Below are positions 1,893 to 26,603 of a stretch of 26,603 bases of DNA, piece by piece. The position numbers and the translations under genes are program-made. The notes under the pieces are model-generated. The model worked only from the letters and a program-made list of their open reading frames with translations, was not told the DNA's origin and did no database searches. Each line of letters starts with the position of its first letter. Position 1 is the first letter of the stretch. The DNA comes from Psammoneis japonica (lineage: Eukaryota): positions 62,001 to 88,603 of the forward strand of contig QPGO01000255.1 in NCBI GenBank assembly GCA_008632985.1, read 5' to 3'.

Positions 1893-1910
1893 GTCGCGTT
1901 ATAATCACAT

Positions 1911-2294
1911 TTATGCGGCAGGAGCAGTTTCCAACGCTGCTTGCATCATTTCTACAATGATTGTCTTTGCGTCCTTTCGAACATTTTGCGAGGGGAGCTG
2001 GAATTGGTCGCTCGCTCGTGGCATCCTTGTCACCATTGTCTTTGCGTCCTTTCGAACATTTTGCGAGGGGAGCTGGAATTGGTCGCTCGCTCGTGGCATC
2101 CTTGTCACGTTGACATACAAGCCTAAACTGTCGGCAGACGCAATGATTGCTGCCGACACATCCATGCCGGGAATGGCATGCGCCTCCATGGCAATAGTCG
2201 ACTCCATGTGATCCTCATTCACGTGATTTACAACATGCGAACCAAAAGCAGAATCATCTATGCGAGGTTGGAGGTTGTCGCACGTCGTCGGCAA
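1911..2294 (-). CDS. Possible short hypothetical protein carrying the 25-aa duplication
   Basis: 127-aa ORF with plausible composition and an in-frame duplication. No recognisable homology. Confidence 0.25.
   Translation of the reverse strand: MPTTCDNLQPRIDDSAFGSHVVNHVNEDHMESTIAMEAHAIPGMDVSAAIIASADSLGLYVNVTRMPRASDQFQLPSQNVRKDAKTMVTRMPRASDQFQLPSQNVRKDAKTIIVEMMQAALETAPAA
1960..2108. repeat. Perfect 74-bp tandem duplication (75-bp period)
   Basis: 1960-2033 is identical to 2035-2108 (ATTGTCTTTGCGTCC...GCATCCTTGTCAC). Confidence 0.97.
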
Positions 2295-2470
2295 TCGGCA
2301 TGATCGTCAAAAATTGTCTGGAATCGCACCGTCGCACTCAGATTTATTTCATCGCTTACCATGGTTCAGGGGAGAGTCTTACCTCCACAGGCTATTTTAT
2401 TTCTGGCTAGGAATCCTGTCTTTACTCTCAAGAGTGTCGATTGCTATTTGAAATGTACATTTTGTAATAG

Positions 2471-4201: not shown

Positions 4202-5072
4202 CTTGCAAATTCAGATTCTTGCAAGGCATGTGTTAAAATGAAACTTGAGAAGAGAAAGACTCTAGAGATGGGAGCAGTCTTTCACTCGCCCTAATGGTTG
4301 CTATCATTAAAAAGAAACTTAATGCTTGGTGCCTGGTGCTGGTTGCTGTTGCGGTAGGCCCTAGGTTGAAGGTGATGGGTGAGTTTTTTGCGTGATGAGT
4401 GATGAGATTTCCTTCACGCTCCGTGGCGCGACGGACGGACGCTCATCTCGAGAATCGTCTGTCCTCCGACGGCATGAAAAATGACGTCATCCGAAAACCG
4501 ACAAACGAACGCGACGTTATTTTGGAATTTTGAGATTTTTTCAGATTTGGAGATGATCAATGATCAGGTGATCACACCTTGCGTTTTGGTTGATTGATGA
4601 GGTGGGTTCTGCAGCGTTGCCCGGCCCATCGCTGTTTGCAACAGGGTCGTTGATCAGGGGCCGACTCCGGCCTCCACAACTGCCCACTTCTTGCTCCTCA
4701 GCTTGCATCATCGATCTTTGGGTCAACGGATTCTTTCCTTTTTGAACAGGACTGACATTCTGACCGTCCTTCAGGTCAAAGAATTGCGAGATGATGTGCA
4801 CGGCTCAGAGCATTGCTGCGTGATTCATGGAACAAAACTTGGCAAGTTGGATCCCGACTTGCACTTCGAAGAGGAAGCTCTAGAGGCGGTCATGTGTCCC
4901 TGCTTTCGCCGATGAGTTCAACGGGCACAATGCGGCAATTCAAGCTGATGCTCTGACACTTCAAAAGTCAGATGAGGAAGGAAATGAGCAATCCCGTCAA
5001 GCAAGCCATGACAATGATGACGAAGGAGATCCATCTGCACGCATCACGCCATCGCGTCATCCCAACCAAAAG

Positions 5073-5188
5073 GTGAGTCAATCGTTCGGCTCATTGCATT
5101 GGTGGCTTTCCTTCCTTTGTTGCTTGTTCTTTTTGTTTGCCTGGGTTGTCGTTGTCTCACCATGACTTCCGTGCATGTGCCATTCCAG
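5073..5188 (+). other. Putative spliceosomal intron (phase 0)
   Basis: AAG|GTGAGT donor at 5073, T-rich body, TCTCAC branch-like motif at ~5155-5160, and TTCCAG acceptor at 5188 (alternative CAG at 5191). Splicing keeps the flanking frames joined. Confidence 0.65.
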
Positions 5189-5479
5189 CAGGTTCTTGAT
5201 CCCATCCAGCCTGTCATGCTGTTTGAAGATCCCAAGGCAACGCAGAAGTCACTGGAACAGATTGCTGGAGGTGAATTGGGTCATGAACAGGAACTGGTGC
5301 ACCTTGAATTGCTCAACCGTCGCCAAACCGAATGAGTCGAGGACCTTGCATCGAATGCAATCAAATGCAGGGAATCGGGACAAGACGAGCCGATTGAAAA
5401 AGAGAACGAAAGAACCAATCATGCGAGAGGTTGGGTCCTGTGGTTCATTCGTTGCTTCTTTGCAATCGCTTCATTGTGT

Positions 5480-8010
5480 CTGCTTGCTTGGTGCCATGTC
5501 TCTTTGGTTTCATCTTCTGAATCGAAACCGGTTGCGATTCGTCCTTTGGGCGGGATGCCTGTTGCATCGTCTGAGACTTTGATGCTCACTCCGTCCAAAG
5601 CCTCAAAAGCCATCATGATCGCCCCTTCCAGGGCACTTGCGATTGTTCCTTCCAAGGCATTGGCACTGACCATCCCGGACTCCGAGAAGTCTCTGACGAT
5701 TTGTGTTCCGCTTTGGAAGCCGGCATCATTGAAGGCCTTGGCAATCATTTCAAGTCAAGAGCTTGTTGCGTTGGAGGCTGCAACAAGTCGCGTTCCAACT
5801 CGGAAGCTTCTTCCATTGAGAGTGATTGCGCTGCATGTCCCGAGTCGAGGTGTTAGATTGTCGAGGGCTTCTTCTTTTCTTGTCTTGATTCAAGCGAGGC
5901 TCGACGATGCCACATGCGGCGAGGAAGAGGCTGGGCCAGTGACAAGTTGGTGGCCCGCCTTCTACGTTCTTGTCGCTCTCTTCGCAATCTACGTCTGGCT
6001 TCTCTTCTTCTGGCAGATTCACTCTTTGCCTCGAACGATGAACGACTCTCTCTTCCGACTGTCTTCACAATCGGGATGCACGGCTCTGGCGATCAGGCCT
6101 TTTGGTGAATTGATGGTGGCACCATCCAAGGCATTGGCAGTCGTTCCGTTGAAGGAATTGGTGCCTGTCATCCCAGATTTGAGCAAGGCCTTGTCGATTC
6201 GAGTTCCCGTGCCATCTGCTCCAACTGCACCCCTGATAAATTTGTTCACGTGGGTGCTTGTGATGGGCATTGTCTTGATTCTTTTTGGAGTTGTTTGGAA
6301 TCAAAACACGCCTTGTGACAACGAGGAAGGAAGGGATCTGTGCATTCTTCGTGACGGAGACAAGGAAGCTCAGTTCTGGATCGAAGATGTCAAGGAAGTC
6401 AAAGAACCACGATTCTTGCTCTTTTGGATTCGACATTTCTTTGCTGTCGGTTCCTGGATTTTCTTCGTCTGGTGTCTTGCCTCGTCTCCTCGACCAATGT
6501 TCCATTCTGTGAGCTTGTCGCCATCTCATTCTCGACCGACGTCTCTCATGTTGCCCACCGTTGGTGACATGATGACTGTGTCATCCAAGGTGCTTACGAG
6601 AGCGCCCTCAAATGCCGCCCTGATTGTCCCTTCTAAGGCACTGGCGATCGTTCCATCCAAGGCATTGGCGCTGACCATCCCGGAGTCCGAGAAGTCTCTT
6701 GCAGTTTGCGTTCCACTTTGGAAGCCGGCGTCATCGAAGGCACTGACGATCGTTTCAAGTCGTGAGCTTGTTGTGTTGGAGACCGCAGCAAGTCACATTG
6801 CAAGTCGCAAGCTTCTTGTGTCGAAAGCGATCGCAGCGCATGTTCCGAGTCAACACTCCAGGGCTTCTTCATTCATTTGCATGCCTCTGTCATGAGTGCT
6901 GGTTGCAATCGGTTGTGTCTTCATTCAAAAAAGATTCGATGATGCCAGGTGCGGTGAGGAAGAGCCTGGACCAACGATGACTTGGTGGCCTGCCTTCTGC
7001 CTTCTTGTCGCTCTCTTCACAATCTGCGTCTCGCTTCTCTTCTTCTGGTGGTTCCACTCTTTGCCCCGAACGATGAGCGATGCTGTCTGCCGGCTGTCTT
7101 CACATTCAGGATGTGCGGCTTTGTCAATCCGGCCTCTTGGTGAATTGACGGTTGTGCCATCCAAGGCCTTGATGGTCATTCCGTCGAACGCGTTGGCACC
7201 GATGATTCCGGATTCGAGCAAGGCCTTGTCGATTCGAGTCCCAATTTTGGGGCATGCGGCCGCTGCATCTGTTCCAAATGCCGCATCAATTCATGCACAG
7301 AGTCAGGAACACGTGCTGTCAGCCCCATCTACATTCCAGATAATTCCTTCGAAATGGTTGCTTGTGATTGGGCTTGTCTTGACAATCATCATTTGGCTTT
7401 CTTGTGCTCCAACCATGCCCAGTGACATCGATGAAGTGGCGACTCGCCGAGTGCTTTGCGATGGAGACGAGGAGGCTAAGGTGTGGATTAAAGACGACAA
7501 GAAATTCAAAGAACCACGAAGCTTGCCCCTGCTGATTCGTCTTTTTCTTGTTGTCAGTTCCTTGGGCTTTCTGGTCTTGCACCGTGCCTCTTCTTCACGA
7601 TCGATGAGCGGTTCTGTGGCGATGCCGCCATCTCACTTTGGATCGACGGCTTTGGTGGTTCGTCCAAGAGGTGAACTGATGATTGTTCCTGGCAAAGCTG
7701 TCATGGTTGCTCCTTCCAAGGCCTTGGTTGTTGTTTTGTCCACGGCTCTGGCTCTGACCATTCCGGATTCCCAAAAGTCTCAGGCTGTTCGTGTTCCACT
7801 TTGGAAACCGGCATTGTCTGAGGGATTGGTGATCATTTCAAGTCGGCAGCTTGTTGCTTTGGAGGCCATCACAGATCGTTTTCCGCCTCGGAAGTGTCTT
7901 GCATTGAATGCTTTTGGGCTTCACCTTCCGAGTCGAGCTGTTGTGATGTCGAGGTCATCTTCATCTGCTTTGATCAACGCGATTTGGTTGCTGGCAATGG
8001 GGCTTCTTTG
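5480..8010 (+). repeat. Internal tandem duplication, ~2.5 copies of a ~1.0-1.1-kb unit, itself built of related ALAIVPSKAL-type subunits
   Basis: VPLWKPA-encoding anchor at 5705, 6710 and 7793 (periods 1005 and 1083, both multiples of 3). The DDAxCGEEExGP..WWPAF block occurs at ~5900 and ~6935. Confidence 0.9.
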
Positions 8011-8739
8011 GATTGCAGTTCAAAATTGCATCGCTCCTGATGATGACAATGATGAAGAGCCTTTTCTAATTCATCGTGTACACGACGAAGACGCCGTTCA
8101 TCACCAAGACCCGATTCCGCCGCATCCCATGCCACCGGATCCTCCGATCCATCCTCAAGACCCAGGCCCTCCTCTTCAGGCCGAGGATGGCTTGCTGCCA
8201 CAAGATCCCCTGATTCAGCCGCCACCACTGCCACAAGACCCCCATGTTCCTCGTCAACACCCCATCCCAGTCCGCAGTTGTAAGCCACGAGTTCTTCGGC
8301 GCTCCGCCCGTCTTGACAATGCCGTTGGTAGCGTGCACCTTCATTCCGAGAACGCTTGCGTGCTTCGTCGGTCCTCGAGGTTCTCGTGCCGCACTTAAAA
8401 TGCCATTTCTCCAGTCTATTGCGGAAGCTGATAGCAGGCGGAAGCTGATGGCAGCCGGAAACTTCCTCCAGGGCACGTTCACGTGCATTCCTACCGTAAG
8501 GAGTTGGCCACAACTCTACGGCGCGGAGGGCCATTTGTTTGAGCGATTGTCCTGTCTTCAATGGAGCTTGCACGCACCTGCTGAGGCGGGGTAGGCATTC
8601 TTTTGTTTGACCTACAAGCTGCAAGCTTCATTGTTGATGTGCCACTTTTGTTCTTGCCTCGAGATGGAGACGGTATGTTGGTGCTGATTGTCGGACCCGG
8701 CAATTTGGGATATCGTTTTGTATTGTATTCGCATGTTGT

Positions 8740-9385
8740 TGTTGACGGGATTGCATTGCTGTTTCGCTGCGCCATCTTCTTGTTTGCTTTCGTCGTTGCT
8801 ATGATTTGTCATTGTTTTCGGATTTCGTATCGTATCGTTGTTGGAAGTGTGCTTGATGCTTGACCATGTTTGTTGCGTTGCAAATCATAATGTTGCGCTT
8901 CTGTGATTGCCGGTATCGTAGTCGATTTGCTCTTTTTTGCTTTGCTATTGGTGGGGCTCGTTGTCGTTGCTTTGCGGTTGTTATGCTTTTGTTTGCTGAT
9001 TAAGTGGCTGCAATCGTGCGTCTTTTTTTGTGTCGGCATTTGCGGGGTCATCGTCGATGTTTCTGCTGCTCCTTTTGCTGGCTGGCGGTGCTCTCATTGC
9101 CTGTGTTTGCGGGTTTGTTGTTTTCGCTTTGTATTCTTTGCTGCGGGGTTGCATATTACGTCGTCTTGCGTATGTTTTCTCGGTCGTCGTTGTTCTTGCT
9201 CCTGTTTGCTGTTGTTGTATGCTTTGTTTTGCATCGCTGTTGGAAGGTTTAGTCTTTCGTCATTGTCGTTTGCCACTGCCGATTAAGAACTTGTGTCCTT
9301 GACTTGCCAGTCCTTGCTACTCACATATTTCCCTTGTTATAGCTATGGTGGTATTCCGTCTTGATCCTCTAGCTCTCAAGAGGTG
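8740..9385 (+). repeat. T/G-rich dispersed repeat, copy A
   Basis: Shares TCGCTGCGCCATCTT, GCATTTGCGGGGT.ATCGTCGATGTTTCTGCTGCTC, CTGCGGGGTTGCA and TGTATGCTTTGTTTTG.ATCGC with copy B. The last two blocks also occur in copy C. Confidence 0.85.
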
Positions 9386-9409
9386 GTTGTCGGACCCTGC
9401 TTTTCCCAT

Positions 9410-9880
9410 GTTGTTGTTTGACTGCGGATTGTGCTGTTTCGTTTTGTATCGCTGCGCCATCTTGTTTTGTTTGCTGTCTTTTGGTTGCTATTCTTGTCAG
9501 TGTTTGCGGGTTTCGTTTCGTATTGTTGTTGGAATTTTCTTGATGCATGATTGTGTTTGCTGTGGTGCTAAATTACATTGTATTGTGCTTCTTTGATTGC
9601 GGGTGCATTATTTTGTGTTGCTTTGCTGTTGTCTTGCTTTTGTTTTTTGTTCCCTGATATAGTTGCTGCAATGTTTCGTTTTTTTGTACCTGCATTTGCG
9701 GGGTTATCGTCGATGTTTCTGCTGCTCTTGTCATTGGCTGCCTGGCTTTCGTTGCCTGTGTGTGCGTATTTCTTTTTTTCGCTTTGTATTCTCTCTGCGG
9801 GGTTGCACATTTCTCGATCGTCGTTGTTCTTGCGTCGCTTTGTTGTTGGTGTATGCTTTGTTTTGTATCGCGGTTGAAGG
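9410..9880 (+). repeat. T/G-rich dispersed repeat, copy B
   Basis: Collinear diverged copy of 8740-9250. Confidence 0.85.
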
Positions 9881-9934
9881 GTCGTCGATTGTTTCTGCTG
9901 CTCTTGTTGTTGGCTGCTTGGCTTTCGTTGCCCG

Positions 9935-11812
9935 CTACCGGCGGACTCAACCGGTCCCGCTGCCTCAACCGGTCCCGCCGGCTGACTGACGGACGCTCGC
10001 TAGAATTAGTACGTAGCCCTACGCACAAGCCGCCGCGATGGATGAGTTTGAGAGTGCCGCCACAACGCAATGATAACGCAAAGCGACTTCTTTCCGAAGG
10101 ACATGCGATACAATCCTACCCTTGAAGAAAGCTAGAATACTAGAAGCTATACAATCATATCTCTAAAGAACAACAAAATGCTATAAGTCTATAAGTCATT
10201 TCAATGGATTGCTTATCGTCGTCAACGGACAACGCCGAAGATGCCGCGACGAGTCGAAAATCACAAAAAAATTGATCTCTTACCTTTTGCGCCAAGTTCT
10301 ACTCTAGAGTGGCACTGTAGCACTCTAGAGAGTAGTAGCCCTAAATAGAGAGGCCATCCGCACGCACACCCACACTAACTAACTCTACCAGCGAGAAGAA
10401 ACAGCACGTTCGCCCCAACTCCATCTGTGCCCTGGTCCAAATTTCATCCATTGCACTTGTACCTCTCTACACCCGACTAGGAACTGAGTGCTCCAGGATC
10501 TGATTTCCCCATATGAGCAAAGAGTATCAAAAGATATCTGTCATGTAGAACATGGGCCTGGAAATGCCACTGCAAGCTTTAACGGTCAACGACAGTCACA
10601 CTGGAAAATGACAGGCAAAATGAAAATATGAGTGGAACAACGTACACAATAATAATCCATTGGGGTTACATGTCACAGTATACTCACTAGGGCACCTTTT
10701 AAATGTAGAGCTGAGTCGCCTTACTAATTTTTATGCCCCCAAGTAACATCAGCGGTTCGTGGCATCCGCGCATTCAAGAGGAGGCGATGAACCCGCCAAC
10801 ACAAGCCTCAACCTTCCCATTTTACCCATTGCAAAGCCTAGAGTCGTAGTTACACCACAAAGATCTCCCAAAATAACGTGGACAATATTGTGTCTTAGAT
10901 AATGATGATAATGCGGTTGAAGGGTAGGTGGAAAGGGTCAAAAAGGACCAGACACCTGTGCGCATGATCGAGACGCACCAAAAAAGGCTCGTGAGGTATG
11001 CAAGTTTCGTCAAAACGAGTCCAAAACTCAATCAATCACAACATGCTCACAGGGTTACCTTCTTTGGACTATGGAAAGGCTGTCTGACAAATGCCAATGT
11101 CGTGAGTATCCCCGAGACTCCATCGCATCGTTTTGTTCCCACGGCATGCACTTTCAAGAAATTGTTATCGCCGAAAAACGACATGCTGTGATTACGAGCC
11201 GACCAAGACCTTCAAAAACATATCAAGCTTGTCACAAGTCCAAATAAATAGTAAAAATAGATGTACCAAAAGATGTGGAGTGGGATGAAGCACAAGGCTC
11301 CCAAACGGATGCGCTTTTGTGATGACGACGACGTGAAAAAGATGCCAATATTGCAGATGCAATAATCGACCGTACGAGACGATATATCCTCCTATGAAGC
11401 TGTAACAAAGCACAAACAACATCTTTAGTGAGTAGATAAACGGTATAAAATGAGAAAACACAGAAAGAACTTACCACGGCAACGTTGTCGACCATTCAGA
11501 TGTCACCCGTACCGTGCAGCAATCGAGTCACGAGTCGAGGCACGCAACCGTTTGTACCGTGTGTCGCCACCAAAGCCCCCCAGGAAACCAAACCAATGCA
11601 TCAACCTATTTATAACAACGATAGAAAAAGATCCCACATGAAAGATACATCGACCCAACGATGTATGCCATGGCGAGATGCATCAAAGTACAACATGCCG
11701 TTTTCAATGCAAAATCGGGACCGGTTGAGTCCAATCGAATTATTCGACTCTCGTGCTTCACCGTGGTGAAATTTCAGTCACGGACGCCGGGACCGGTTGA
11801 GTCCTCCGGTAG
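9935..11812. mobile_element. Non-autonomous DNA transposon, 1878 bp, 25-bp terminal inverted repeats, CCCG target-site duplication
   Basis: Left TIR CTACCGGCGGACTCAACCGGTCCCG (9935-9959) matches the reverse complement of 11788-11812 with 1 mismatch. CCCG flanks both ends (9931-9934 and 11813-11816). Extra subterminal copies of the core lie at 9964-9977 and 11716-11732. No transposase ORF is recognisable. Confidence 0.88.
11400..11474 (-). other. Putative 75-bp intron inside the TIR element
   Basis: On the minus strand: GTG|GTAAGT donor, CTACTCACTAA branch-like motif and TTTGTTACAG acceptor. Confidence 0.5.
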
Positions 11813-12039
11813 CCCGTGTGTTCGGGTTTCTTGTTTTCGCTTTTTATTCTTTGCTGCGGGGTTGCATATTTCGTCATTCTGCGTGTGCTTTCTCGATCGT
11901 CGTTTTTCTTGCGTCGCTTTGCGTTTGGTGTATGCTTTGTTTTGTATCGCGGTTGGAGGGATTGGTTCTTCCTCTTTGTCGTTCGTCAGTGTCGTGTGTG
12001 AATTGGCGGTCATGTCTTGCTGCGCATCACCATCCTTAT

Positions 12040-12804
12040 CTACTCACCTTTCTTTCCCTGTTATAGCTTCGGTGGGATTCCCCCTTGTAAGACCGGCTCT
12101 CAAGACGTAGGACCAAGGTGAGTGCCTATATTTTCGTGATTGGATGCTTGTTGGTGCGTCTTACTCTTTTTGGTTGTATTCACTGGAGCCTCTACACCAC
12201 CATGTCAAAACATCCATTTCGAGACTACAATCGCCTTCAACTCAATCTGTCCCTCTCACGACGCTCTACTCCATCCACAACGTTTCATTTGTCACCACAA
12301 AACCTCCAAATCGCTCGCCCAATACCTCGAGTTCGTCCTGTCCGTCCTTTACTGAGTTGTTCTCTCTTCACCACGATTTCTCTATGATCACTCTCCACCA
12401 CCACAAATTCCTCTAGTTCGTCATGTTCGTCCTTTATCTCTCTTCCGACTCGTTACTCCCTCCACGATGTTTCATTCGTCACCAAAACTCCTTCACATCG
12501 TTCGTATTCGACATAAACCACCCCCTCACCTCCAATTCCTCCAGTTCGTCTTGTCTACTGTACTGTGTTCCATCTATTCTCCATGATCCTTCTCCACAAG
12601 CTGATCCTTCTCCACAAGCTCCAATACCTCCAGTTCGTCTTGTCCGTCCAGTGTTGCGAGCCGTCCATGCCACTCACTCAATCTACTCGCGAGTAGGGTT
12701 TTGCTAGGCGGTGACACTGAAGGTGAGTAGTGTGTGCTTTTGTCCTATCGTTGCCACATTATTTCTGTTTTCGCTCGTTTCACTAATCACTCGCTGTTTC
12801 TTAG
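12040..12804 (+). other. Chain of splice signals suggesting a multi-exon transcript without a long ORF
   Basis: Acceptor CTCAC..TTCCCTGTTATAG at 12066, donor AAG|GTGAGT at 12118, possible acceptor at 12696 or 12707, donor AAG|GTGAGT at 12723, branch CACTAAT at 12781, and acceptor TTTCTTAG at 12804. Confidence 0.45.
12265..12650 (+). repeat. Degenerate C/T-rich repeats plus an exact 18-bp tandem duplication
   Basis: AATWCCTCNAGTTCGTCNTGT at 12321, 12406, 12534 and 12623. TGATCCTTCTCCACAAGC at 12584 and 12602. Confidence 0.85.
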
Positions 12805-12876
12805 GTTTGGAGTGTGATCCTTCTTGGATTGGATCGCACTCCAAACCGCCGCTCTCTCACCCCCCCCCCCCCCCCC
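12804..12876. other. 17-bp-stem hairpin followed by a C17 homopolymer
   Basis: GGTTTGGAGTGTGATCC (12804-12820) pairs with GGATCGCACTCCAAACC (12831-12847), with one T:G wobble and a 10-nt loop. C run at 12860-12876. Confidence 0.85.
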
Positions 12877-14109
12877 AAGGTCTCCCTCCCTTGATCCCTC
12901 ACAGGTTCGAATTGGGCCGTAGCCTCATGTCGATACACAAGGTTTAAGTAACAGCGGGTCCCGCCCCGCGCCTTACGTTCCTCGAACAAAATGTGGACCA
13001 GGAGTTTATCGACATTTGGCTACGCGACTTTAGTAACCCTTGTCAGGCCGTGCCTTATCTTGTACAGTAGTGCATTGATAAGCTTTTAGAATATGAATAA
13101 GGAACTTCTTTCCTTGTAGGAGCCGGCTAAGGCAATTCAGTCTTCTTTGGATCTAGTTTAATAGCTTGAAAAAATGTTTCTCTAGTAAGCATGTTGAATG
13201 GTTACGTAACAAATCATCTGGTCCATGCCGATTTGTTACATCGTGCGATCGTCTATTGGCTCTTGCATTCGTGGGCGTCGAGGTACAACATGTAAACCCA
13301 CGTCTTCGTTCGTCTCCCTCTTCTTTAGATCTGCACGTCGACAGCCTCAATTTTTCCCTCGAACAGCTAGTTCCAAGATGCAAACGGAACAACGCTTTAC
13401 TCTCCTCTTGACAGTTTCCATACGTCATATCATGGAGTGTCCTTGCTATTCTGAATTGCATGCGCCATCGCCATTTTCCCGTGTCTTTGTTCTCCCTAGG
13501 TTTTCTGTTGCCGACGGCTGCCGACCTCCGTCCAATTGAAAGCACGTTTATGGAAACGCTGTGCCCAAAACACAAGTAAAAAGGGTGAGAAATCTGCATG
13601 AGACAAAACATACCTAAGAAATATGGCATAATAAAGCGGCGTCACGATGCTATAAATACCCAGTACTGCGTACCCAATCTCATTGCCGCACGGTCGCAAT
13701 TTTTAGTCGCAGAGTAAAATAAAAATGCTGCCAATTGTCACTTGGTAAGCTCATCATCCGCTTGGAAGACTAATCTGTGAGTAGTTCAGCATCTTCTGAT
13801 CGACTATGCAGGAAATGTCTTGAGTGTCTATTGCTTTAGTCGTAGCCTCAACCGATCCCTTGCTGATCGATCAACCTGCTTGGAAGCGCATCATCGCGGG
13901 TACGTCGACAAAGAGGGACCCATCTACTGACTTCGCGTGGGAACAATGGTGCGCAGCTCAAATGAATCAGCAGTTCAGGTGGCCGAGCAATTTGCATCAA
14001 ACCAAACTAATAGCCATCAAATAGCCCCTTTCCAACTTCTTTTTGTCTGCCTCCAGTCCTTCGCTTCTGCCTCTGCTGTCACAATTGGCGGCAGCTCCAG
14101 CCCGTCTTT

Positions 14110-14890
14110 TTAAACGCTCGTTTCCAATTCACGTTCCACGTCTTGTCTAGACTGTAAGGGTTGAGTTGAAGAAGCACCTCGTTTTACATTGACATGCAAC
14201 TGTCCTTCACTATCCTTGAACTGCGGTGCCAGCTGTTGCAACGTTTGTTCCCAACGCCCCAGCCGTACGGAAATCTTGCAAAATCCTGCGTGATGCATCC
14301 TCTGGACTCCCGCGGCACTTGGAATCCGCGAAACGAAACAACATGCCTTCTCGTGCAAGGAAACGAATCGATCCATCGTCTGTCGGCTGAAGCTCGAGAG
14401 GATCAAAGCCACAGCGTTCCTTGACTTTGGCCTGCCAGTTTGCAAATGTTGTGTCTTTTTGACAATACCATGAAGCTCGGTAAATCTCGTCGCCCAAGTC
14501 AAACTTATGACAACCGTATGCGACAACAGAGGGGGGTTCCATACTATCCGCGTCATCTTCGTCAAAGAAGGGGTTCGGATACTCAATGTCCTTTCATCAA
14601 GGGCAGAGCTAGAATCGCCATACACGTGTCGGTCAGAGTTTTCCTCGAGACTGACTTGTGGGTTAAGGTGAACGCCGTCCGAGCGCAGGTTTGTATCCCA
14701 CCGGAATGGGGAAAATGTTGCAAATCAAGAAGAGTCGACCGGACATAACACCAATCATTTTTTTTGTTGGCCATTGCTGTAATTTGTAACGTTCCCTGCG
14801 AAGACGTCCACCAAGACGCCGCCTCAGAAGCGAGACTTCTCAGAGGCGTCAAAAGCCAAAACAGTTGCATTACGCCAATACCGCAATGCA
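14110..14890 (-). pseudogene. Probable frameshifted gene relic of unknown function
   Basis: Protein-like stretches in alternating frames: ...EENSDRHVYGDSSSALDE, then KDIEYPNPFFDEDDADSMEPPSVVAYGCHKFDLGDEIYRASWYCQKD... No recognised domain. Confidence 0.3.
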
Positions 14891-16521: not shown

Positions 16522-18099
16522 TGTCGTGTGGTCACCAAATAGGTTATGAATTCCAATCGCGCGAATTTGCCTGCGCTTTGTACAATATCGTCAGTGTGTA
16601 TTCAGATTTATTCTTTCCTGAAGACTGCAAATGACATTGTCATTACCGCGGTCTACATCATTGTTGAACTATATAAATCGCATCATGCATTTCAAACATA
16701 CAGCGCCTGACATTGTACATTCGAAAAAATCCGGAGGTTTCTCGTGTTCTTCAGTGTAGAAAATCGAGGGAGATGATGATGATGATGCTTTCATTTTATT
16801 TGAGAAAGGACAGTCAGATCAAGATGTCAGCAGATCTGAGACCTTACAGTTGTCAGTGCCGGCATGTCATGCGGTCTTGTGGATGTGAAGCACAGCTTCT
16901 AGAAACTGGATTCTGTGCTTTCTCCGTGACTCACATTGAACTTTTTCGTGCTGTTGAACTTTTTCTTGAGCCTTCAGCAGTGTTGGAGAGGCTCGGTGCG
17001 AACCAATCATTTTGGTGAGTGCTGGCGGTCCACCAGAGTGAACGGAAATGGAGCTCCCTTTCAAACCAGGAAGTGTCACTCAAAGCAAGACCGCGCCTTT
17101 GCGCTCCACATCGCCATGGGCTGGATTGGAACACATTGCTTTGAAATTGATTTCGTGCCATGCAGGTTCATTGGATTTAAGCCACATCAAGCGTGCTGCA
17201 CTTGTGTCAGCGTGAAGCATGGCTCTGCTGGTGCTTGTGGACAAAAGCAAAAGCGAAAGGCCTTGGTTGGGCTTTCTCGACAAGACTTCTGCTGCGCACT
17301 TGGAGAACACATGCAACCAAACCAATGCACGACAGCTGGCCCCACCGACAAGAGTTGTCAAGGTTGACATGTGCCATCATCAAATGGCAATTTCACTTTG
17401 GAGCACAGTTGCGAACATTTGGACAAGCGGAGAACCACGCATGCCATGTGGTGGAAAAGATCTTGGGAAGAAATTCTGATCCCGTCGGTGGAATTGGATC
17501 CAAACATGAAATGATTGAGATTGTTGTTGGCAACCTTGCATGGAAGCAGCTTGGCTGGAATCCCACCACAAGTCGCTTGGTCAATGCAGTCTGCTGCACA
17601 CTGGCACTCCTTTCAACAATGATGACCACGCTGCAAAACGTGACAAAGGCGCTCACTTGGCACATGCTGTGCTGCTTGGAATTGGACAGTGCTGGTGGAG
17701 ATGTCTGACTCGAGAAAGCAGTCTCTCAAATTGTTGGGTCAACTTGGATTTGCCAGAGGATGCAATGGACAGAGAAATCACAAGGGCGACCCTGACGAGT
17801 GGACATCAAGAAAACCATTTCTCGTGGTTTGCCAGCATGACCAACTCTCTTGCTGGGTCACTCGCCTGGTCACTCAACAACCGCCCCAGCAAAGAAATGA
17901 CCCCCTGAGTGACAAAACGTCATCAACAACTGTCTGACCCCTCTGCCAGCCAGTTGCCTCTAGCCTCAGTTTGGCTTTGCCATGTGATTTCTCAAAATTC
18001 CCCGGGATTGCCACCTTTCACCCTGTTTTTCTGCGGGAAGGGTGAACTTGCCATTTGTCACATGTGGGCTAAATGCGTGCATAAAAAAATGCATTGGCA

Positions 18100-20720
18100 A
18101 CTCCCGTGCTTCCCCTCTTGCACATTTCTGCACGTTCTACATGCCAGGATGTGCGGCAGGAGCCAGACAATCCCCTCCTCCTCTGGACCCGCCTGAGATC
18201 TCTGAAGACGACCTGCTCTCAACACTGAGCAAATGCAAACCAGGAACTGCAGCTGGCCCTTTTGCACACTCAACAGACTTTCTGAAGGCCCGCTCCTTTT
18301 ACAAAACATCTGCCCCCACCAAAACACAAATCCGTCCCCACCTCGTCCCAGCCTTTCGAGACTTTCTCCTCCTCCCACTCACCAACTCTGTCCCTCCCGA
18401 TGCATGCACCATCACTCCTCTCCTCCAACTGCTTTGTTGCCCTTCACAAAGACCCAACCAACCTCAACAAGCTCCACCCCATTGGATGTGACACCACCCT
18501 GCATCGCACAGCAGGCACCCTCACCATGACACAAAATGTCTCCAACTTCACTGACTGCCTCCTTCCTGATGGCCAATTCAGCATCGGTGTAAAAAAGGCG
18601 GGCTCAACCACCTCATTCACACTGCTCACGCCAACATTGAATGATGTCTCAATGTGTCTGTTCCATCGCATGCCTTCCTCTCCCTTGACCTCACAAACTT
18701 TTTCAATGAATGCTCCCGAGACACCTGTCACCAACAACTTGACACCATCCCCCAAATGCAACACACCTGCTGCACATCTTCAATCTTTTCTGCAATGACC
18801 CCAACAAATGCTGGTGTCATGACCCCACTGGCACTTGGCGCTCCTTCCTTCAATCTGAAGGATTCTGCCAAGGATGTCCTTTTGCCTCTCCTTTTGTGGC
18901 GCCAGTCCTCAGAGTCGTCCTCAAACAACTCAACCTTGAACTCTGCCAATGCCTCCCCTCTTCCAACATCACATCTGCAGCTTCCCTCATTGACGACACC
19001 AGCACATGGCTGCCCCACACCTGACTGCCATGGTTCATTGAACATCTCACTGAAATCACCCCTGCACGGTGTCCACCTCAATTGTGACAAAACAACAGCT
19101 GTCCTCACCTTGATCACCAGTGATTCCCCTCTCCCACATCTCCCTCCTGCACATGCCACTGCCTTGCACAAAGCTCTCTCCCTGCTCAACCCTGCCAATG
19201 ACCCCCAACTCTCTCTCCTGAAATTGCCACTGGCAACCGCTTCCTTGGCTGCTTCCTTGGCCAGCCCATCGGAAGCGCGGAATTTGCAAGCACCTTTCTT
19301 GAACAAAAAGCTTCCAAGTTCCAAACCAACCTCAACTGCCTTTTGTCCTGGCTGCATGACATCCAAACAAAAAGCACTCTCTGCCATGCATGTGCCACAT
19401 CCTCCCTTCTACACCTCCTTGCCTCTGACATCTGCTGGCACAACTTTGACCCAGACAACCCCGTTCACACCGCGTGGACATCACCTTTCCAACAAGACAC
19501 TCAGTGCTGCTGTCACAACTTTCTCCAACACCCAACACCTCACCGCTCACCAAGACCCTCTTCCACCACACACATTGCTCCTCTCTCACCTCCCTGCATC
19601 TGCTGTGGCATTGGTCGTCAATCATTGACCATCAGCACCACACCCTTCTTTGCTGCCCAACTGACCCATTCCCTCCGATGCATGTGCAACCCACGGCCTC
19701 ACCACCTCTGCTGATGAACCCCAACTCATGCCCCCCTTCTGTGCCTGTTCCCTCTGCACATGGGCTGCATTGAGACAATCCCTCCATCTGCATCAAGCAC
19801 TCTGTCACCATGGCAATGCTTTGCTGCCACACCTTGACCCCCTGCCTCCCTCTCTTCCTGCTCCAGTTGAATCTTTTCCACTCAAGACGCTCCCTCACGC
19901 CATGTGTCACCTGCACTTTGCCAGCCAACTTAACCACCCGCCATGGCCCGCCACACATCACCACTGCACTCTCATCCATCCTTTCACCCTTGACAAGCCT
20001 CCCATTGCACACTCTCTCCTGTTCCACAGCTTCCCAATGTCTGTTGCCTTCCATCTTCCAACTCACACCACAAGAACGTAAACTGCGCTTGCCCATCTCC
20101 TCTGATCAATCCACCCCCATCCTGTGCCCATCTTGCTCTGGCACAGTTGACCCACATGGTGATCATTCCTTTTGTTGCCACTCTCTTGGTCACAAAACCA
20201 CCCCATCCAACTCCCTGCGTGATGGTCTTTTTGCACTTCTCCAAACTGTTGGACCCCTGTCCGGCCAATGTGCCACCTCCTTGGACAATGTGGTGCTGCT
20301 GTCATTGCTTCCTCAAATGATGCTGGCATCTGCCTTGCACCGTTCACCATTGATCACCTTGGTTCAACCGGCTGCTTTGCCCATTGCCTCCTCTTTGGTG
20401 ACACCCAAACACATCCCCTCCCTCCCCCTCCCTGGAACTTGGAATCCTCTTTACACCGCCCATCTGCTTGTGATGCCTGTGCCAATGCCCAACTCTCCCC
20501 ATCGGGCCTTCTTCCCACTGCCACATCTGCCTGGAAAGCCATCACCTTGACCAGGTTTGGTCTCACACACCACACCACCACCCCAAGCCAGTGGGCCTTT
20601 CAGAATCTCAGTCTCACAGTTGCCAAATCCCTCACTGGCCAACTTCTTTGCTGCTCCATCAAACTTCAATCACAAGTTGCAAATCCAACAAGAGAACCCT
20701 CCCATTCCCCACCTGCATGA
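18100..20720 (+). mobile_element. Degenerate non-LTR retrotransposon, CRE-like (RT, Cys/His knuckle, C-terminal tail)
   Basis: Frameshifted motifs in the expected order: KPGTAAGP, FVALHKDPTNLNKLHPIG, LLPDGQFSIGV, LSLDLTNFFNECSR, QSEGFCQGCPFA, LIDDT, GVHLNCDKT, RKLRLPI...CPSCSGTVDPHGDHSFCC...SNSLRD, and PFTIDHLG. The endonuclease core appears deleted near 20280. Confidence 0.8.
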
Positions 20721-20984
20721 CACCATTTCATCCCACTGTGCTGTCTGCACTCCACACCACACCACTGGGTGACATTGCACACACGTGACCTTCTCACACA
20801 CATGCACTCCAAACTGTTCATGACAAAAACAATCGACCGACCACAACGAAAATGGGCAACACGCCATGGCACATTTGCAACACATTTGTGATGGCTTTTG
20901 CCTGTCAATCATGACACCGTTCAATGCACTCAACAATGTCAATTGAACAGGATCTGTGGCACAAAACACAAGATGAAACATGAT

Positions 20985-21355
20985 TGCTCATGTGCAGAAT
21001 GCCAGTGCAATTGAGGCATCAGTCGTCAGTTGTTCTTTTGTTGTGAAGTCCAAAATGCAAGCCATGAGGTGTGCATGCAGCAAAGGCCAAGGCAAAAGTA
21101 GAACCACGCATGGCCAATGACAACAACATGTCAGATTGAATAGTCTCCCTCATTCTTCCAATTGACACATCTTGCGTGCAGAATGAAGGGGATTGTTCAG
21201 ATCAGCTCTTGTGTCATGCAGTCATGAATGCAAGCCATGAGGCATCTAGAGTGAAGGACAAGGCAAAATTAGAACTTCACATCGCTGACAAAAATGTGTC
21301 AGATTGATTGACAATGTCATTTTTCCCTTGGACCTGTCTCATGTGCAGAATGATG
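20985..21355. repeat. Degenerate tandem repeat, ~170-185-bp period, ~2.2 copies
   Basis: GTGCAGAATG at ~20992, 21176 and 21343. ATGCAAGCCATGAGG at 21055 and 21228. CAAGGCAAAA.TAGAAC and TGTCAGATTGA each occur twice. Confidence 0.8.
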
Positions 21356-21782
21356 CATTGGATCTTTTTTCCTTCTTGTGTTGTGTGGTCCCAAATGCCA
21401 ACAACAAGTGCTCCAGAGCAAAGGCTGGGGCACAGATGGAGCCGCATGTGAGCAATGTCAATGTGCATGATTTAATGGCAAAGTTTGTTCTTCCCTTGCT
21501 CCACCACAAGAGGCCACTTTGTGTCAATTTGTTGATTGCATCCATGGTCGTTGCCCGGCTGTGCTGGATGAAAATGAGAAAAAGGCACACCAGCCTAACC
21601 CAGATCAAACAGGAATCACCGCAATGCACTCATTTTTTGTTCCCCTCCCCAAGCCCGTTTGGTCATTCCTTCCCACCAAATTGCCCTCATTTCCCAGAAA
21701 TTCCCCAAAAGGGCAGGGCAGTTCTCTCTTGCCCTTGCCATTTTGGGGGATGCCAAATGGGTAAAACCAAACTGAGCCTCTG

Positions 21783-22011
21783 GCAATCAAATCACAAGTC
21801 GAGGCATGCAATTGTTTGTGCCACACTGAAGGGCGACCAAAGCCCCCCAAGAAGCCATGCCAGTGCATCAAGCACTTCACAACAACAACAGAAAAGACTC
21901 CCCACAAAAAAAAAGTTGACCCCTCTGTGTCTGCCATGGTGAGATGCATCAAAGTGTGTCAACATCAACAGGTGCCGTTTTGTGCAAAATCTGGAACAGT
22001 CCAGTTGAGTC
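21783..22011 (+). mobile_element. Mutated relic homologous to the right subterminal region (11519-11732) of the TIR element
   Basis: Collinear matches including ACCAAAGCCCCCCA, TGCCATGGYGAGATGCATCAAAGT, TGCAAAATC and GTTGAGTC. Confidence 0.85.
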
Positions 22012-23383
22012 ATTTGCTTCTTGGATGAAGGTCAGATGATGTCCATGAGCCACCCTCATTTTTAAAGGCTGCGGCTTCTTATGTGAGATCTTTTGCAAGT
22101 GAAGCTGCTGCACGGCTTCCTGCATGAGACCTTTTGTGCACACATGGAACTTTGCTCAACTTGCGATCAGCAAAACTTCATCCAACAGCCAAAGCAGAGC
22201 GAGTGCACAATTGTCAGAAACTGGCAGAGAGATGCATCATGTTGTTTTTTGCAGTGTGCAGCCAACACCTTGTGAGCACAAGTCAAGTGCTCACTTGACG
22301 CCAAACCAGCAAGCCCTTCAGGAGGAGTGGGGCCATCGAGTGCAGGCTCAGTTTGAGGCAGGCTCAGTTTCAGTTTTGCGAAGATCTCTGCAAGATCCCA
22401 ACACCAGCTGCAAGGAGAAAGATTGCAAGGAGCAAGCCAAGGTGCGCAGAAGCATTCATGAAAAAGCTTTTTATCAAGAAGAGCAAGCCACAGAGCAAGC
22501 AGAGTGAAACCACGAAAACCAGCTGTTCCTCAACTTTGTGAAAGAATTTTGCAAGAGCAATGCGTGCAACAACAGTGATTTCAACAGCTGCCTTCGTGCC
22601 TTTGCAGCTGCCAGCATGGCTCCTTCTGATGGCAATGATGTTGGCTGTGAGTTCATCTTGTTGACTGTTTTTGGTGTTTTGCAGCAACCCAATTTCTGAC
22701 AACACAAATTGCTTCTGCAATCTGCTTCTCAGAATTGGCGGATGAATGCATGAAGATGATGTGGGTGACGATGCAGCTCACTGTGTGGAAGGTGAAGAAA
22801 AGTGTTGCAACCGTTTGATGGATTTTGTTGCCTGCATTGATCATGTTGCCACCAACCTCAACCAAGACACTGGGTTGCAGTTGAAGTGCTGTTCTCTTGC
22901 TTGCTTGAACAGAGACACAGCTTTCATTCAGAGAGGGCTCATTCTCAGAAGTTGTGTTTTTGCCCCCCAGTCTTTCAAAGCTTGACCACATTCCTGTCAA
23001 AAGTTGACAGCTCCATGTGACACTCTCTTTCCCTCTCATGCAAATCATCATCATCAGCTTTGTTGTCATTCATGGGAACATGAGTGAGTCTGGTTTGTCT
23101 GTTGAAAAAGTCTGCAGAAGCCATCCGACATCAGACCTTTGACTCCATGTCTCTTTGTGGACGATTTCAGAAACTCGGCCTGTTCCACCACTTCAGACAC
23201 ACACGTGGCATCAATTGTTTGCTGTGAACAAAGGGCTGCCTGAATGGCTTTGAGGCATGCAAACCAAAGCTCATCTTTTGGCAATGGCACAACCAATGCA
23301 ATGCATTGGAGTGCATCCATTGAATCTTTTCACAACCCCACACCATCAAAGTTCACTTGTGCCGCTGCCCCCCAAGATGACTG

Positions 23384-23920
23384 GGACATGGCTTCTGTGT
23401 CACAGCACGCTGAAGAGCAATGCAAATCTTCACCACTGAGAAAAGTGCTTTGTCAGCCTTGTTCTGTCTTCTTGGTTGCAAATGTGGCTGCACTGTGTCC
23501 TCCAATGCCATTGCCAAAGGAGGTGGTCACCAAGTTCTTCCCTTCATCCTGCAACTGCATGACAGAACAAGTGCACAACCACGGTGATTTTGTTTGTGAA
23601 CAACAATGCATCCTCCTGCAGCAACTCTGTGGTGTTGGTGAGCCTGCTGCCCCCATGAGATGAGGACATGGCTTCCATGTGGCACTTGTTGTGCTGAAGA
23701 GCAATGCAAAAAATCTCAACCACCATGCATTGCGCTTTGGCAGCCTTGTTCTTTTCAGGCGCAAACATGTCAGCACTGTGCCCTCCAATGCCGTTGCCAA
23801 AGGAGGTGGTTGCCAACCAAGTTCTTTTCTTTCTCCTTGTGCTGCATGACAGAGCAAGTGCACGGCAGCAGCGACTTTGTTTGTGAACAGAAGCATTCCC
23901 TCCTGCAGCAACTCTGTGGC
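23384..23920. repeat. Diverged tandem duplication, ~280-287-bp period
   Basis: GGACATGGCTTC, GCTGAAGAGCAATGCAAA, TTGCCAAAGGAGGTGGT, CTGCATGACAGA.CAAGTGCAC and CTCCTGCAGCAACTCTGTGG each occur twice in the same order. Confidence 0.9.
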
Positions 23921-24099
23921 ATCTGCAAACTGTCGAATGTTGCAAAACAAGAAAATGCGCACAATGGCAGAACCCTGGGAGCAGAAAAACAGAGTGTCTT
24001 TCTTCCGAACTTTTTGCAAATTGCTCTGAATGATTTCCATGCCAGCACTGCTGAAACCCACTTGCATCAAGGACCCGATGCAACTGACGGCAGACATCA

Positions 24100-25470
24100 G
24101 AAACAAACCAAGCGCAGGGAAAGATGGAAGTGTGAGTTTAAAATGTCATTCCACCTGAAGTGATTCCACAACTGCGCAAACTGCAACTTGCGTTTCCATT
24201 CTTTTCAATGCTTCCTTTGTCCAGCACAAGTTCTTTGTCAACAATTGATCTTCTTTGTTTGCAAAGTCTTTGCAATGCACACTGCTCTGACAACCCAGTG
24301 GGTCATCTGCAAGCATCCCGGGCAATTGAGTCATTTGCTCAATGGGAGTCACAGCCAGTGTCATGACCAGACCCACAAATGCTGTGACTCAAAAGAGCCA
24401 AATGAGCAAAACACAAATGGTGGTCAGGAGTTTCACAAGAGCAGCATCACAAATGCACTCACAGTTGGTGAAGCAGCCTGTGGCAGTTCCGCTGTAGATT
24501 GGACTGTCCTTGTTGCCCTTGACTGCAATGTGGAAGAGCTCCCAGTCCCCAGGAATTCACAGACCATGCTTGGCACTTGTTTGCACAAACCAGGCACAGA
24601 GCTTGTAAGAGCAGCATTGAGAGCCTGATTGCAAACCCTCCAATGGCCATTTGACCATGAAGGACAATCATCATGGACAGCCACGTGGTGTCATTTCTCA
24701 GAACAGGCAAAGAATGGCGATGCATTGTCCCATCAATTCACGCATGGTGCCACCAACTTGAGACTCTTGCATCTTGGCATCAAGATTTTGACAAGCCCTT
24801 CTTGACATTGTGCTGGTGCTTCCAGAAAGTTTCTTTTGAACAGAGCCATCAGCAAATTTGCTTGCCGCATGAGCCAACGGATCATTCCTGGAAGCTGTGT
24901 CCTGCACGTTCTCAGGAAGATTGGTGGCAGCAATTTCTTTTCTTCGTTTGGCAACACACCAATGTGAATCAAAAATGACACCACAAAGCCCTTGAAGCCC
25001 TTTTGTTGCATTCTGGTGTGTTGCTTGGCTTGAATGGTCAAAATGGCTCCCAGGGCCAAGATGTTCCATGCATCGGCACTCCCAATCCTTTTGGCGGCAA
25101 CAACTTTCTTTGGGCTCCTTCTGCTTCATTCCAAGTTTGTTGTGAAAAGGCTTTCATCTTCTCACAGCAACACATTGGTTTGAGCCATTGGAACATTGAA
25201 TGTGCCACAGACACCTTGACACAAGCAGTGCCAGGTTTTGACATGCAGCTCTTTCTCCCAAACACGTCCACAAGCAGAATTCCATCCCATGTGATTTGGT
25301 GCATCACAGCAAGAGGCTCAAAATGAGCAGTTCCTGAGTCTTGGTTGTTCCAACTAGAATGACATCCATCTTGACAATCTGATTTTTGTGACAAAGCATG
25401 GTCGCTGGTGCCATCCAATGCCACTGCAAAATCCTTGGACTTGAGTGCATCAAACATTGACAATGTGATG
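24100..25470 (-). mobile_element. Possible hAT-like transposase relic
   Basis: Weak motif resemblance only: FAVALDGTSD (~25401-25430, like the first catalytic Asp motif) and LKLVAPCVN*WD (~24727-24762, like the xRW motif if the TGA derives from CGA). Confidence 0.3.
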
Positions 25471-25924
25471 TAAAATCCAGCTCATGCGTGACCTGCTGAT
25501 TTGCCCTGTTGTTCCTTGGGTGTCCACATGGTGAAATCAAAAGCAGAATGAGCTGCGCCCTCATGCAGAGCACTTTGCCACCACTGCAAGTCTTCCTTGG
25601 CCCACACCACCGTCAATGTGCCACCAACAATGGGCTCTCAGCTGGCTTGCTGCTGCAACTGACTTGAGTCTTCTCTCTTTGCTGCATGCTTTGCTTCTTC
25701 TTCATCATCAATGATGGTGGCTTCATCCACAATCTGCTTTGCAGGTGAGGTCACAATTGCCCTGAATTTATGAGCATCATCCCAAGCACCTTCTCTGTTG
25801 AATGTCCACTGATGAATGACAAATTTTGGCTGGCTGAAAACATGCTTGTTGATTCACTGTTTCACTTGCAAAGAGGAATGAGGTTGTGCATTGCTTGGGT
25901 GGGAGAGGGCAACGCATTCTGCCT

Positions 25925-26603
25925 TGAATGACAAAAATGACATGTCCAGCATGAGACTTGACAGATGCACAAGATCCTGTCTGTCCTCAACAGAGCAGAG
26001 TCTCACAAAATTGGCATCAACACGCCAGCCGATTTGTTGATCTGTGGCAGGGACTGGGATGAGCCCTTTGTCAGCTGCGCCATTCAAGTGTTGAAGAGTG
26101 TGTTTGACAGTGACAGCGTGGGAGGCCTTGAGAAGTGCAGGAGAACCAAGTGACTTGATGGGTGGTGCAAGCGATGTCAAGATGGCTGTCAGACACTGGA
26201 TGCTGCGTCAATGTGCCAACCACAGATCGGCAGTTGCAAGGTTTGTTGTTGCAGACTGGCAGCATTGGGACAATCTAACGGATGTCTGGGACAGATGACA
26301 ATCGTGTGCCAGATGAGAAAGAAAGTGGGCAAAGGAGAGATCATTGGATCTCTCCATGCTGTCCATGCCAGTCTGTCTGACACAAGGGAGTGCACTCCCC
26401 ATCTCGGATGTCTGTCATGCCAAGAGATGGGCCTTCTGTGTCACTGCCAACAGAACCAGAAAGTGCAGGAGTGGGAGCTCCATTGCAGTTTTCCATCATG
26501 GCTGCACAAAGAACTTTCTCAATGAGGCCAGTCTGGGTGAGCAGGAATTGGTCATTTTCCAGCTTCTGGATCTTGACACACAAGAAGTTGCCGACTTCAC
26601 CTT
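25925..26603 (-). mobile_element. Degenerate Ty1/Copia LTR retrotransposon pol fragments (RT C-terminal half and start of RNase H)
   Basis: GEVGNFLCVKI...LLTQTGLIEKVL..MENCNGAPTP; CRSVVG..L...SHLDIACTTHQV; KASHAVTVKHTLQHLNGAADKGLI; VDANF..LCSVED.QD; and, after a frameshift, SVKSHAGHVIF. Confidence 0.88.

Follow-up and report, generated by a model that had tools for sequence, protein, structure and literature searches.

Background

Targeted mutation of A:T to G:C has one published example, a rhizarian alga described in a preprint of 2026 that establishes no enzyme. In Bigelowiella natans, integrated NCLDV and virophage DNA undergoes TpA-specific hypermutation, and new mutations were measured (Mettrop et al., bioRxiv 10.64898/2026.01.13.699255). 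According to that preprint, the de novo rate is raised about 1000-fold, only some lines are active, and the authors mention RIP and propose ADAT2 without proof (bioRxiv 10.64898/2026.01.13.699255). The changes are described there as TpA to TpG or CpA only, on both strands and in foreign DNA only, and the TpA-poor genes include some with RT and DDE domains. Its main text mentions no diatom, stramenopile, retrotransposon, LTR or trinucleotide. No report of TpA hypermutation in diatoms was found in the literature covered, which did not extend to subscription journals.

Three other systems offer comparisons. The RIP of ascomycete fungi changes C to T, creates TA and stop codons, and depends on the sexual cycle and a methyltransferase of the RID type. 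The hypermutation by AID and polymerase eta is described as a targeted and position-dependent mutation of DNA with A:T changes at TA, which is started by deamination of C and has WA hotspots that include AA (PMC7884765). Decay of CpG through 5mC is the third, and methylation by DNMT5a is described in the diatom Phaeodactylum tricornutum (PMC9998398).

The locus presented here, in Psammoneis japonica, resembles that in Bigelowiella in that A to G and T to C changes are found only at TpA and on both strands, and in their confinement to foreign or mobile DNA with host genes spared, in this window and the retrieved loci. The two differ in that the host here is stramenopile-type and the targets are LTR retrotransposons and dead gene copies, and in that the loss of TA is near-complete here, whereas the preprint gives a Rho of 0.45 for its region. 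Hits here follow a 5' gradient and prefer TAY, and the differences are fixed here but new mutations there. RIP is also a dinucleotide-specific process of transitions on both strands that disables repeats after insertion and leaks into flanks, but its direction is opposite (here A:T to G:C), and here partner copies escape, as do 3' halves that are just as repeated. Fungal RIP was rejected because neither C:G to T:A transitions nor mutation of all paired copies along the repeat was found; with these two tested features absent, the process belongs with the Bigelowiella kind.

Results

The Copia relic and its conserved sites

The window is the whole analysed stretch of 26,603 nucleotides (contig QPGO01000255.1, positions 62,001 to 88,603), and its end at 26603 is also the end of the contig. 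A fragment of Copia RT and RNase H extends between about 25827 and the end of the contig; frameshifts, a deletion and an insertion of 169 bp break it up (Table 1). It can be aligned with full-length copies, which have paired LTRs and an integrase placed before RT, as expected of Ty1/Copia (PF07727, RVT_2), and the succession of RVT_2 reverse transcriptase and RNase H was found through alignment to relatives with PF07727. Unlike a complete element, the window carries the broken RT/RNase H fragment only; the LTR pair and the gag-integrase-RT order are known from the relatives.

Table 1. Positions in the window of the features discussed in the text
Feature	Position	Strand	Remarks
TA-erased, CG-poor block enclosing the relic	16901..26603		28 TA in 9.7 kb; CG observed/expected 0.15-0.48
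Edge of second TA-erased block	4639..4881		Near-identical partner on contig C81 kept TA; 7/8 TA changed
Decayed host-like gene copy	22866..25196	+	TA-normal partner on contig C112 (L213); 75% identity
Decayed host-like gene copy	25203..25817	-	TA-normal partner on contig C248 (L205); 81% identity
End of Copia RT and beginning of RNase H, containing frameshifts and a deletion	25827..26248	-	Contains the four motifs and the EAEY site; relatives carry PF07727
169-bp piece of a high-copy repeat, inserted in RT coding sequence	26249..26417		39 other matches, 90-95% (among 40 scored of 196 candidates); absent at the same place in L032 and L108
C-terminal part of Copia reverse transcriptase, cut by contig end	26428..26603	-	tblastn against Copia ORFs of L108 and L093: 67% identity, 58 aa
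Tyr site of SRTGY, His (CAT)	25942..25944	-	17 sister copies: CAT 11, TGT 5, CGC 1
Tyr site of LRYL, His (CAC)	26088..26090	-	17 sister copies: TAC 1, TGC 3, CAC 13
Tyr site of DIAY, Cys (TGC)	26167..26169	-	17 sister copies: TGC 15, CAC 2
Tyr site of YRS, Cys (TGC)	26230..26232	-	17 sister copies: TAC 1, TGC 14, CAC 2

A sequence-only reading of the interval 25925-26270 had named four Copia motifs in which Tyr appears as Cys or His and Arg as His, Gln or Trp. All four were found on the minus strand: CRSVVG at 26232-26215 (TGC CGA ...), DIACTTHQVTWF at 26178-26143, KHTLQHLNGA at 26105-26076 and SHAGH at 25956-25942. The frame of KHTLQHLNGA differs from that of the other three, so the motif reading crosses frameshifts that had gone unmentioned.

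Among the 120 best outside relatives, Tyr predominates at each site: 117 have Tyr and none Cys in YRS, 118 Tyr and none His in LRYL, and 102 Tyr and 8 His in SRTGY, while DIAY is more variable (Tyr 73, Phe 32, His 13, Cys 1). A fifth site, EAEY, lies just beyond the studied interval at 25916-25914 and is TGC in the window but Tyr in 118/120. The replacement of conserved Tyr by Cys or His is thus borne out, as the relatives for the most part carry Tyr. The Arg sites are likewise conserved in the same relatives: Arg 99 and His 17 in KR, Arg 112 and Gln 4 in LRY, Arg 117 and Trp 1 in ARF, and Arg 113 and His 2 in SRTG. Arg of YRS is retained in the window (CGA), and the G of the "GT" following LRYL is not conserved (59/120). 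Two of the eight amino acid changes also occur naturally in some relatives, and because His is a natural variant in DIAY, TGY and KR (13, 8 and 17 of 120) the changes there are weak when taken singly; this does not apply to the other changes. Two homologue searches returned almost no named diatom species, and the proteins were mostly Tyr-intact.

Sister copies from the same genome (18 tried, 17 used, one being without a motif match) show a mixture of TAY, TGY and CAY at the Tyr sites, and mostly CGN at the Arg sites. The four changed Arg codons are CGN in the sister copies but CAC, CAA, TGG and CAT in the window, and at 54 CG-type sites the window keeps CG at 4 and has TG or CA at 36. The suggestion that the Arg changes fit CpG decay therefore stands. 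In the window, none of 23 TA-type sites is TA, and 14 are TG or CA. The sister copies are only about 72% identical to the relic, so they are cousins and not parents of it, and none of 38 other matches (best 67-77% identity) proved to be an unhit member of the subfamily to which the relic belongs. The YVDD site of RT is HVDD in the three sister copies inspected. Seven near-identical copies (L032-L038, 98.6-100%), in which a host-like gene is joined to a decayed Copia fragment, were seen on several contigs.

Blocks without TA and decayed gene copies

Not one TA is present in 25925-26270. The relic is an unexceptional target of a process that is itself striking. The ratio of observed to expected TA per kb is 0.00-0.10 in the erased block around it, compared with 0.42-0.90 in the gene-bearing parts of the window, and the edges of the erased block are sharp. 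The few TA surviving in 16901-26603 are often in the context TNTANA (TCTAGA, TTTAAA, TGTAAA); such contexts were hit in 6/24 cases in the young Copia family F2 described below. In the gene-bearing part, the gene at 2471-4210 has DPH2 proteins of Fragilaria, Seminavis, Nitzschia and Cylindrotheca as its best-matching named relatives (41-50% identity), which points to a pennate diatom as the likely host.

The erased block also contains two decayed copies of host-like genes with TA-normal partners elsewhere. Compared with its partner, the copy at 25203-25817 has changed 18 of 24 TA to TG or CA and kept 2, and 25 of 32 CG have become TG or CA; the copy at 22866-25196 has changed 63 of 70 TA and kept 2. 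In the two copies together, TA has become TG or CA at 81/94 sites and is kept at 4, CG has become TG or CA at 131/171, and AA has become AG at 16/212, in counts that omit one 73-bp segment free of TA and include two segments that overlap in the C112 partner. No Pfam family scored above the cut-off for either partner gene (L205, L213). Motifs in L213:3302-4180, the partner of window 22866-25196, resemble those of nucleotide cyclases, and Pfam gave no match there.

A second block, at about 4.5-8 kb, is without TA but keeps CG near 0.83 of expectation. The loss of TA is independent of the loss of CpG. Compared with the near-identical stretch on contig C81, which may be an allele or a duplicate, the changes of TA at the edge of this block (Table 1) give way to 2/25 in 3680-4518 and 0/88 in 701-3488.

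These comparisons bear on a process set off by pairing of repeats, like RIP but with reverse polarity. Such a process would explain why repeats are the main target, why edges are sharp and why both strands are hit. However, the C81 stretch and the partners of the host-like genes keep their TA, the equally repeated 3' halves and 3' LTRs of the elements described below are spared, three copies of the same family are unhit, and the target in Bigelowiella is single copy according to the preprint. As to whether a homologous copy is required, the partners are spared, but 4681-4875, a flank that is hit, consists in part of a low-copy repeat. Tandem repetition alone does not attract the mutator, because a host-like ORF at 437-1549 with tandem repeats of about 150 bases has normal TA. 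Pairing of homologous copies is a very improbable cause.

Other parts of the window are also repeated. A large block (4889-9932 and 11809-14595) is common with contig C245 at 88-95% identity, and in 8067-9890 many TA are kept in the window but lost in the C245 copy. Two long Tyr-poor frames with internal repeats of about 1 kb are found at 5336-8398; they have no Pfam family, TA is erased and CG is kept. The decayed TA-erased frames at 19364-20706 resemble an ORF beside L104 and have a Cys/His motif, presumably that of non-LTR retrotransposons.

Direction and timing of the change

Twenty full-length Copia elements were retrieved and their LTR pairs compared. The two LTRs of one element are identical at insertion. 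Among 169 differences within the 20 pairs, 124 are TA against TG or CA, 14 are CG-type, 11 are TG against CA and 20 are other. The change hence takes place after insertion and in DNA.

In the young family F2, three copies keep TA, with LTR pairs that are 99.6-100% alike, whereas four hit copies on four contigs have lost TA at 260/405 sites in the first 3 kb and at 24/552 beyond. The peak is over gag, where 27 of 28 TA at 1.0-1.5 kb are lost in three of the four hit copies. The hits are largely independent between copies, since the direction to TG or CA differs in 118/350 comparisons, and the process acts in cis. Three of the four hit copies adjoin TA-poor DNA at one end and their 3' LTRs are spared even so. 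A spread from TA-poor neighbours was ruled out as the cause of the gradient because 3' ends beside such blocks are spared. The 5' gradient rests on this one family. In the older families F1 and F7 the hits are more even, and LTRs that adjoin normal DNA often escape, though not in every case (for example L110); F1 is near star-like at other sites. Loss of TA on both strands, as had been proposed from the codon changes, is thus shown by LTR pairs, by hit and unhit copies of a young family and by the decayed host-gene copies.

The timing also bears on A-to-I editing of the element RNA, or an error of reverse transcription, which would be fixed at insertion. ADARs are described as favouring a 5' U (PMC10661471), two genes with an editase domain are present in the genome, and TG is in excess over CA on the coding strand of F2 overall (163:97). 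Against this, the LTRs within a single element disagree at TA, which largely refutes the idea; both TG and CA occur within each copy, the strand excess is gone in palindromic contexts, copies and flanks of host genes are hit as well, and a G at +1 is disfavoured. The features of ADAR-type hyper-editing, namely one strand per molecule, action before insertion and a UAG preference, were looked for and are absent. An origin in RNA is scarcely credible.

In F2 the gag and pol frames are in register with one TGA between them (L104:1923-1925) in all seven copies, the reference included, which suggests read-through of a stop codon.

Sequence context and strand symmetry

The base after the edited A has a clear influence. 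In F2 the hits are 130/266 for C, 63/180 for T, 43/202 for G and 24/162 for A, and in the LTR pairs 47/131, 39/138, 20/126 and 18/151; the four bases differ less in metagenome pairs (C 37/65, T 38/87, G 38/120, A 26/84). These counts pool non-independent exposures and are descriptive. In F2, F1 and F7 as well as the LTR pairs, a pyrimidine is favoured by a factor of two to three, and TAC and TAT are hit in preference to TAA and TAG. Since Tyr codons are TAY, they are the best target. No filter of selection is apparent, as the hits in F2 are 77/105 in Tyr codons, 94/130 in NTA and 86/140 in NNT|A.

In palindromic contexts the ratios of TG to CA are 36:31, 33:49 and 37:41, and the excess of TG on the coding strand is gone. 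A strand bias caused by transcription was ruled out for this reason. The direction to TG or CA is overdispersed within contexts (chi2 213.5, df 126), and LRYL is His in most sister copies (Table 1) while the four-base context predicts Cys, which indicates that a longer context or some shared descent contributes.

Two further explanations meet at these data. Error-prone repair synthesis of the polymerase-eta type, or biased mismatch repair in methylated repeats, would fit the report that, in somatic hypermutation, WA motifs (W = A or T) are hotspots of mutation by polymerase eta (PMC7884765). The gradient from the 5' end resembles that of somatic hypermutation. Yet the hit F2 copies show AA to AG at 3/681 sites compared with TA to TG at 163/405, and TT to CT at 1/464. 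Transversions are not in excess, C changes are not raised, and no processive one-strand tracts were found in any of the four copies. Neither is there a pull from nearby CG: hits within 5 bases of CG number 103/158, compared with 154/217 farther away, and the density of CG along F2 is 15-38 per 500 bases and slightly higher in the hit half. Such repair is a rather improbable source of the pattern.

The other explanation is a modified base at TpA in repeats (a methylated A, or an oxidised or otherwise modified T) that mispairs or deaminates, so that mutation is a by-product, as in CpG decay of 5mC. The strict dinucleotide specificity, the symmetry of strands and the distributive hits are what a palindromic mark would give, and the sink dinucleotides are those of CpG decay. 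However, near-saturated loss of TA, together with about 3% loss of CG and near-identical LTRs, would need a rate far above passive decay. We know of no TpA mark in diatoms. A mark of this kind is unlikely, though the most plausible of the rivals, which in descending order are the marked base, error-prone repair, pairing of homologous copies and RNA editing. Decay of 5mC itself probably accounts for the Arg changes and the loss of CG in the old block and has the same products (TG and CA), but it acts on CG and is far behind the loss of TA (19/687 CG changed to TG or CA in the hit F2 copies).

The pattern in other data

Contigs of run X1, which may be the same sample as the assembly, match the erased block and cover 25253-26082 with 2 differing letters. 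The 25 differences listed between X1 and the block comprise 15 of CG type, 3 at which a residual TA reads TG, 1 site with TG against CA and 5 others. In metagenomes, 8/68 loci of Copia relatives (30-56% protein identity) have TA below 0.35 of expectation. Two pairs have TA as TG or CA at 45/55 and 20/27 sites, with AA to AG at 2/151 in the first; these are from six pairs picked for strong contrast, and many other pairs show little.

An artefact of base calling or assembly, or a functional Copia clade with Cys and His at these sites, is almost certainly not the explanation. The natural His in DIAY and TGY and the possible identity of the X1 sample with that of the assembly speak for it, but the X1 contigs agree with the erased block, the metagenome contigs carry the same scar, and the same sequence is hit in some copies and unhit in others. 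Cys and His also alternate at a single site between near-identical copies.

Discussion

We lean towards reading the Cys and His in place of Tyr as the protein shadow of a mutation of TpA to TpG or CpA after insertion, probably caused by a host deaminase acting on the adenine of TpA and followed by slower CpG decay. A host enzyme would deaminate this adenine in silenced chromatin on both strands, and replication would then turn the resulting inosine permanently into G; sites would be changed gradually, only a few at once, in the course of many divisions. The targeting would begin in the 5' LTR and gag part of a new insertion and spread over the silenced block, with CpG decay later giving the Arg changes. 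The purpose might be defence. Because TA to TG or CA cannot make a stop from a sense codon, elements would be disabled by missense with their frames open. Deamination of adenine in DNA is what we infer here; damage to the A or to the paired T would leave the same sequence.

By analogy, the TAY preference would be nearer to TadA and ADAT2 than to ADAR. An engineered TadA variant is described as editing A in YAC (PMC13109818), and TadA and ADAT2 are listed with ACG, while ADARs prefer UAG (PMC10661471). A more tentative proposal, which we regard as possible, is that diatoms and rhizarians share a genome defence not yet described, in which a DNA adenine deaminase of the TadA/ADAT fold acts at TAY, is loaded at the 5' LTR and gag of new insertions, spreads in cis over the silenced block and disables elements by removing tyrosine without making stops. 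If true, such an enzyme would amount to a genomic adenine base editor of natural origin.

Naturally occurring deaminases of DNA adenine are wanted as editing tools. Diatoms can be edited (PMC9998398), so a second lineage with saturated transposons would make the enzyme findable, and the context preference and the 5' gradient are direct tests of the class of enzyme and of its targeting. Mutation at TpA also distorts the dating of LTRs, the annotation of repeats and the calling of genes, since frames stay open while Tyr is lost.

The genome has 9 matches to PF00383, 4 to PF02137 and 27 to PF00145. An ADAT2-like gene (L117), expected of any eukaryote, an organellar-type TadA-like gene and two editase-domain genes were labelled from reading their translations. 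Judged from these predictions, the deaminase set looks like the usual complement with a second editase-domain gene. Atlas and PDB searches returned only the editase family, and no fusion of a deaminase with a chromatin domain was found in the frames read. The second gene with an editase domain (PF02137), a candidate, is at C79:344558-345390 (L190, L191) in addition to that on C40; the frames read showed no RNA-binding domain. A deaminase domain and a 2OG-Fe(II) dioxygenase are found in one open frame at L116:313-1785 on the minus strand.
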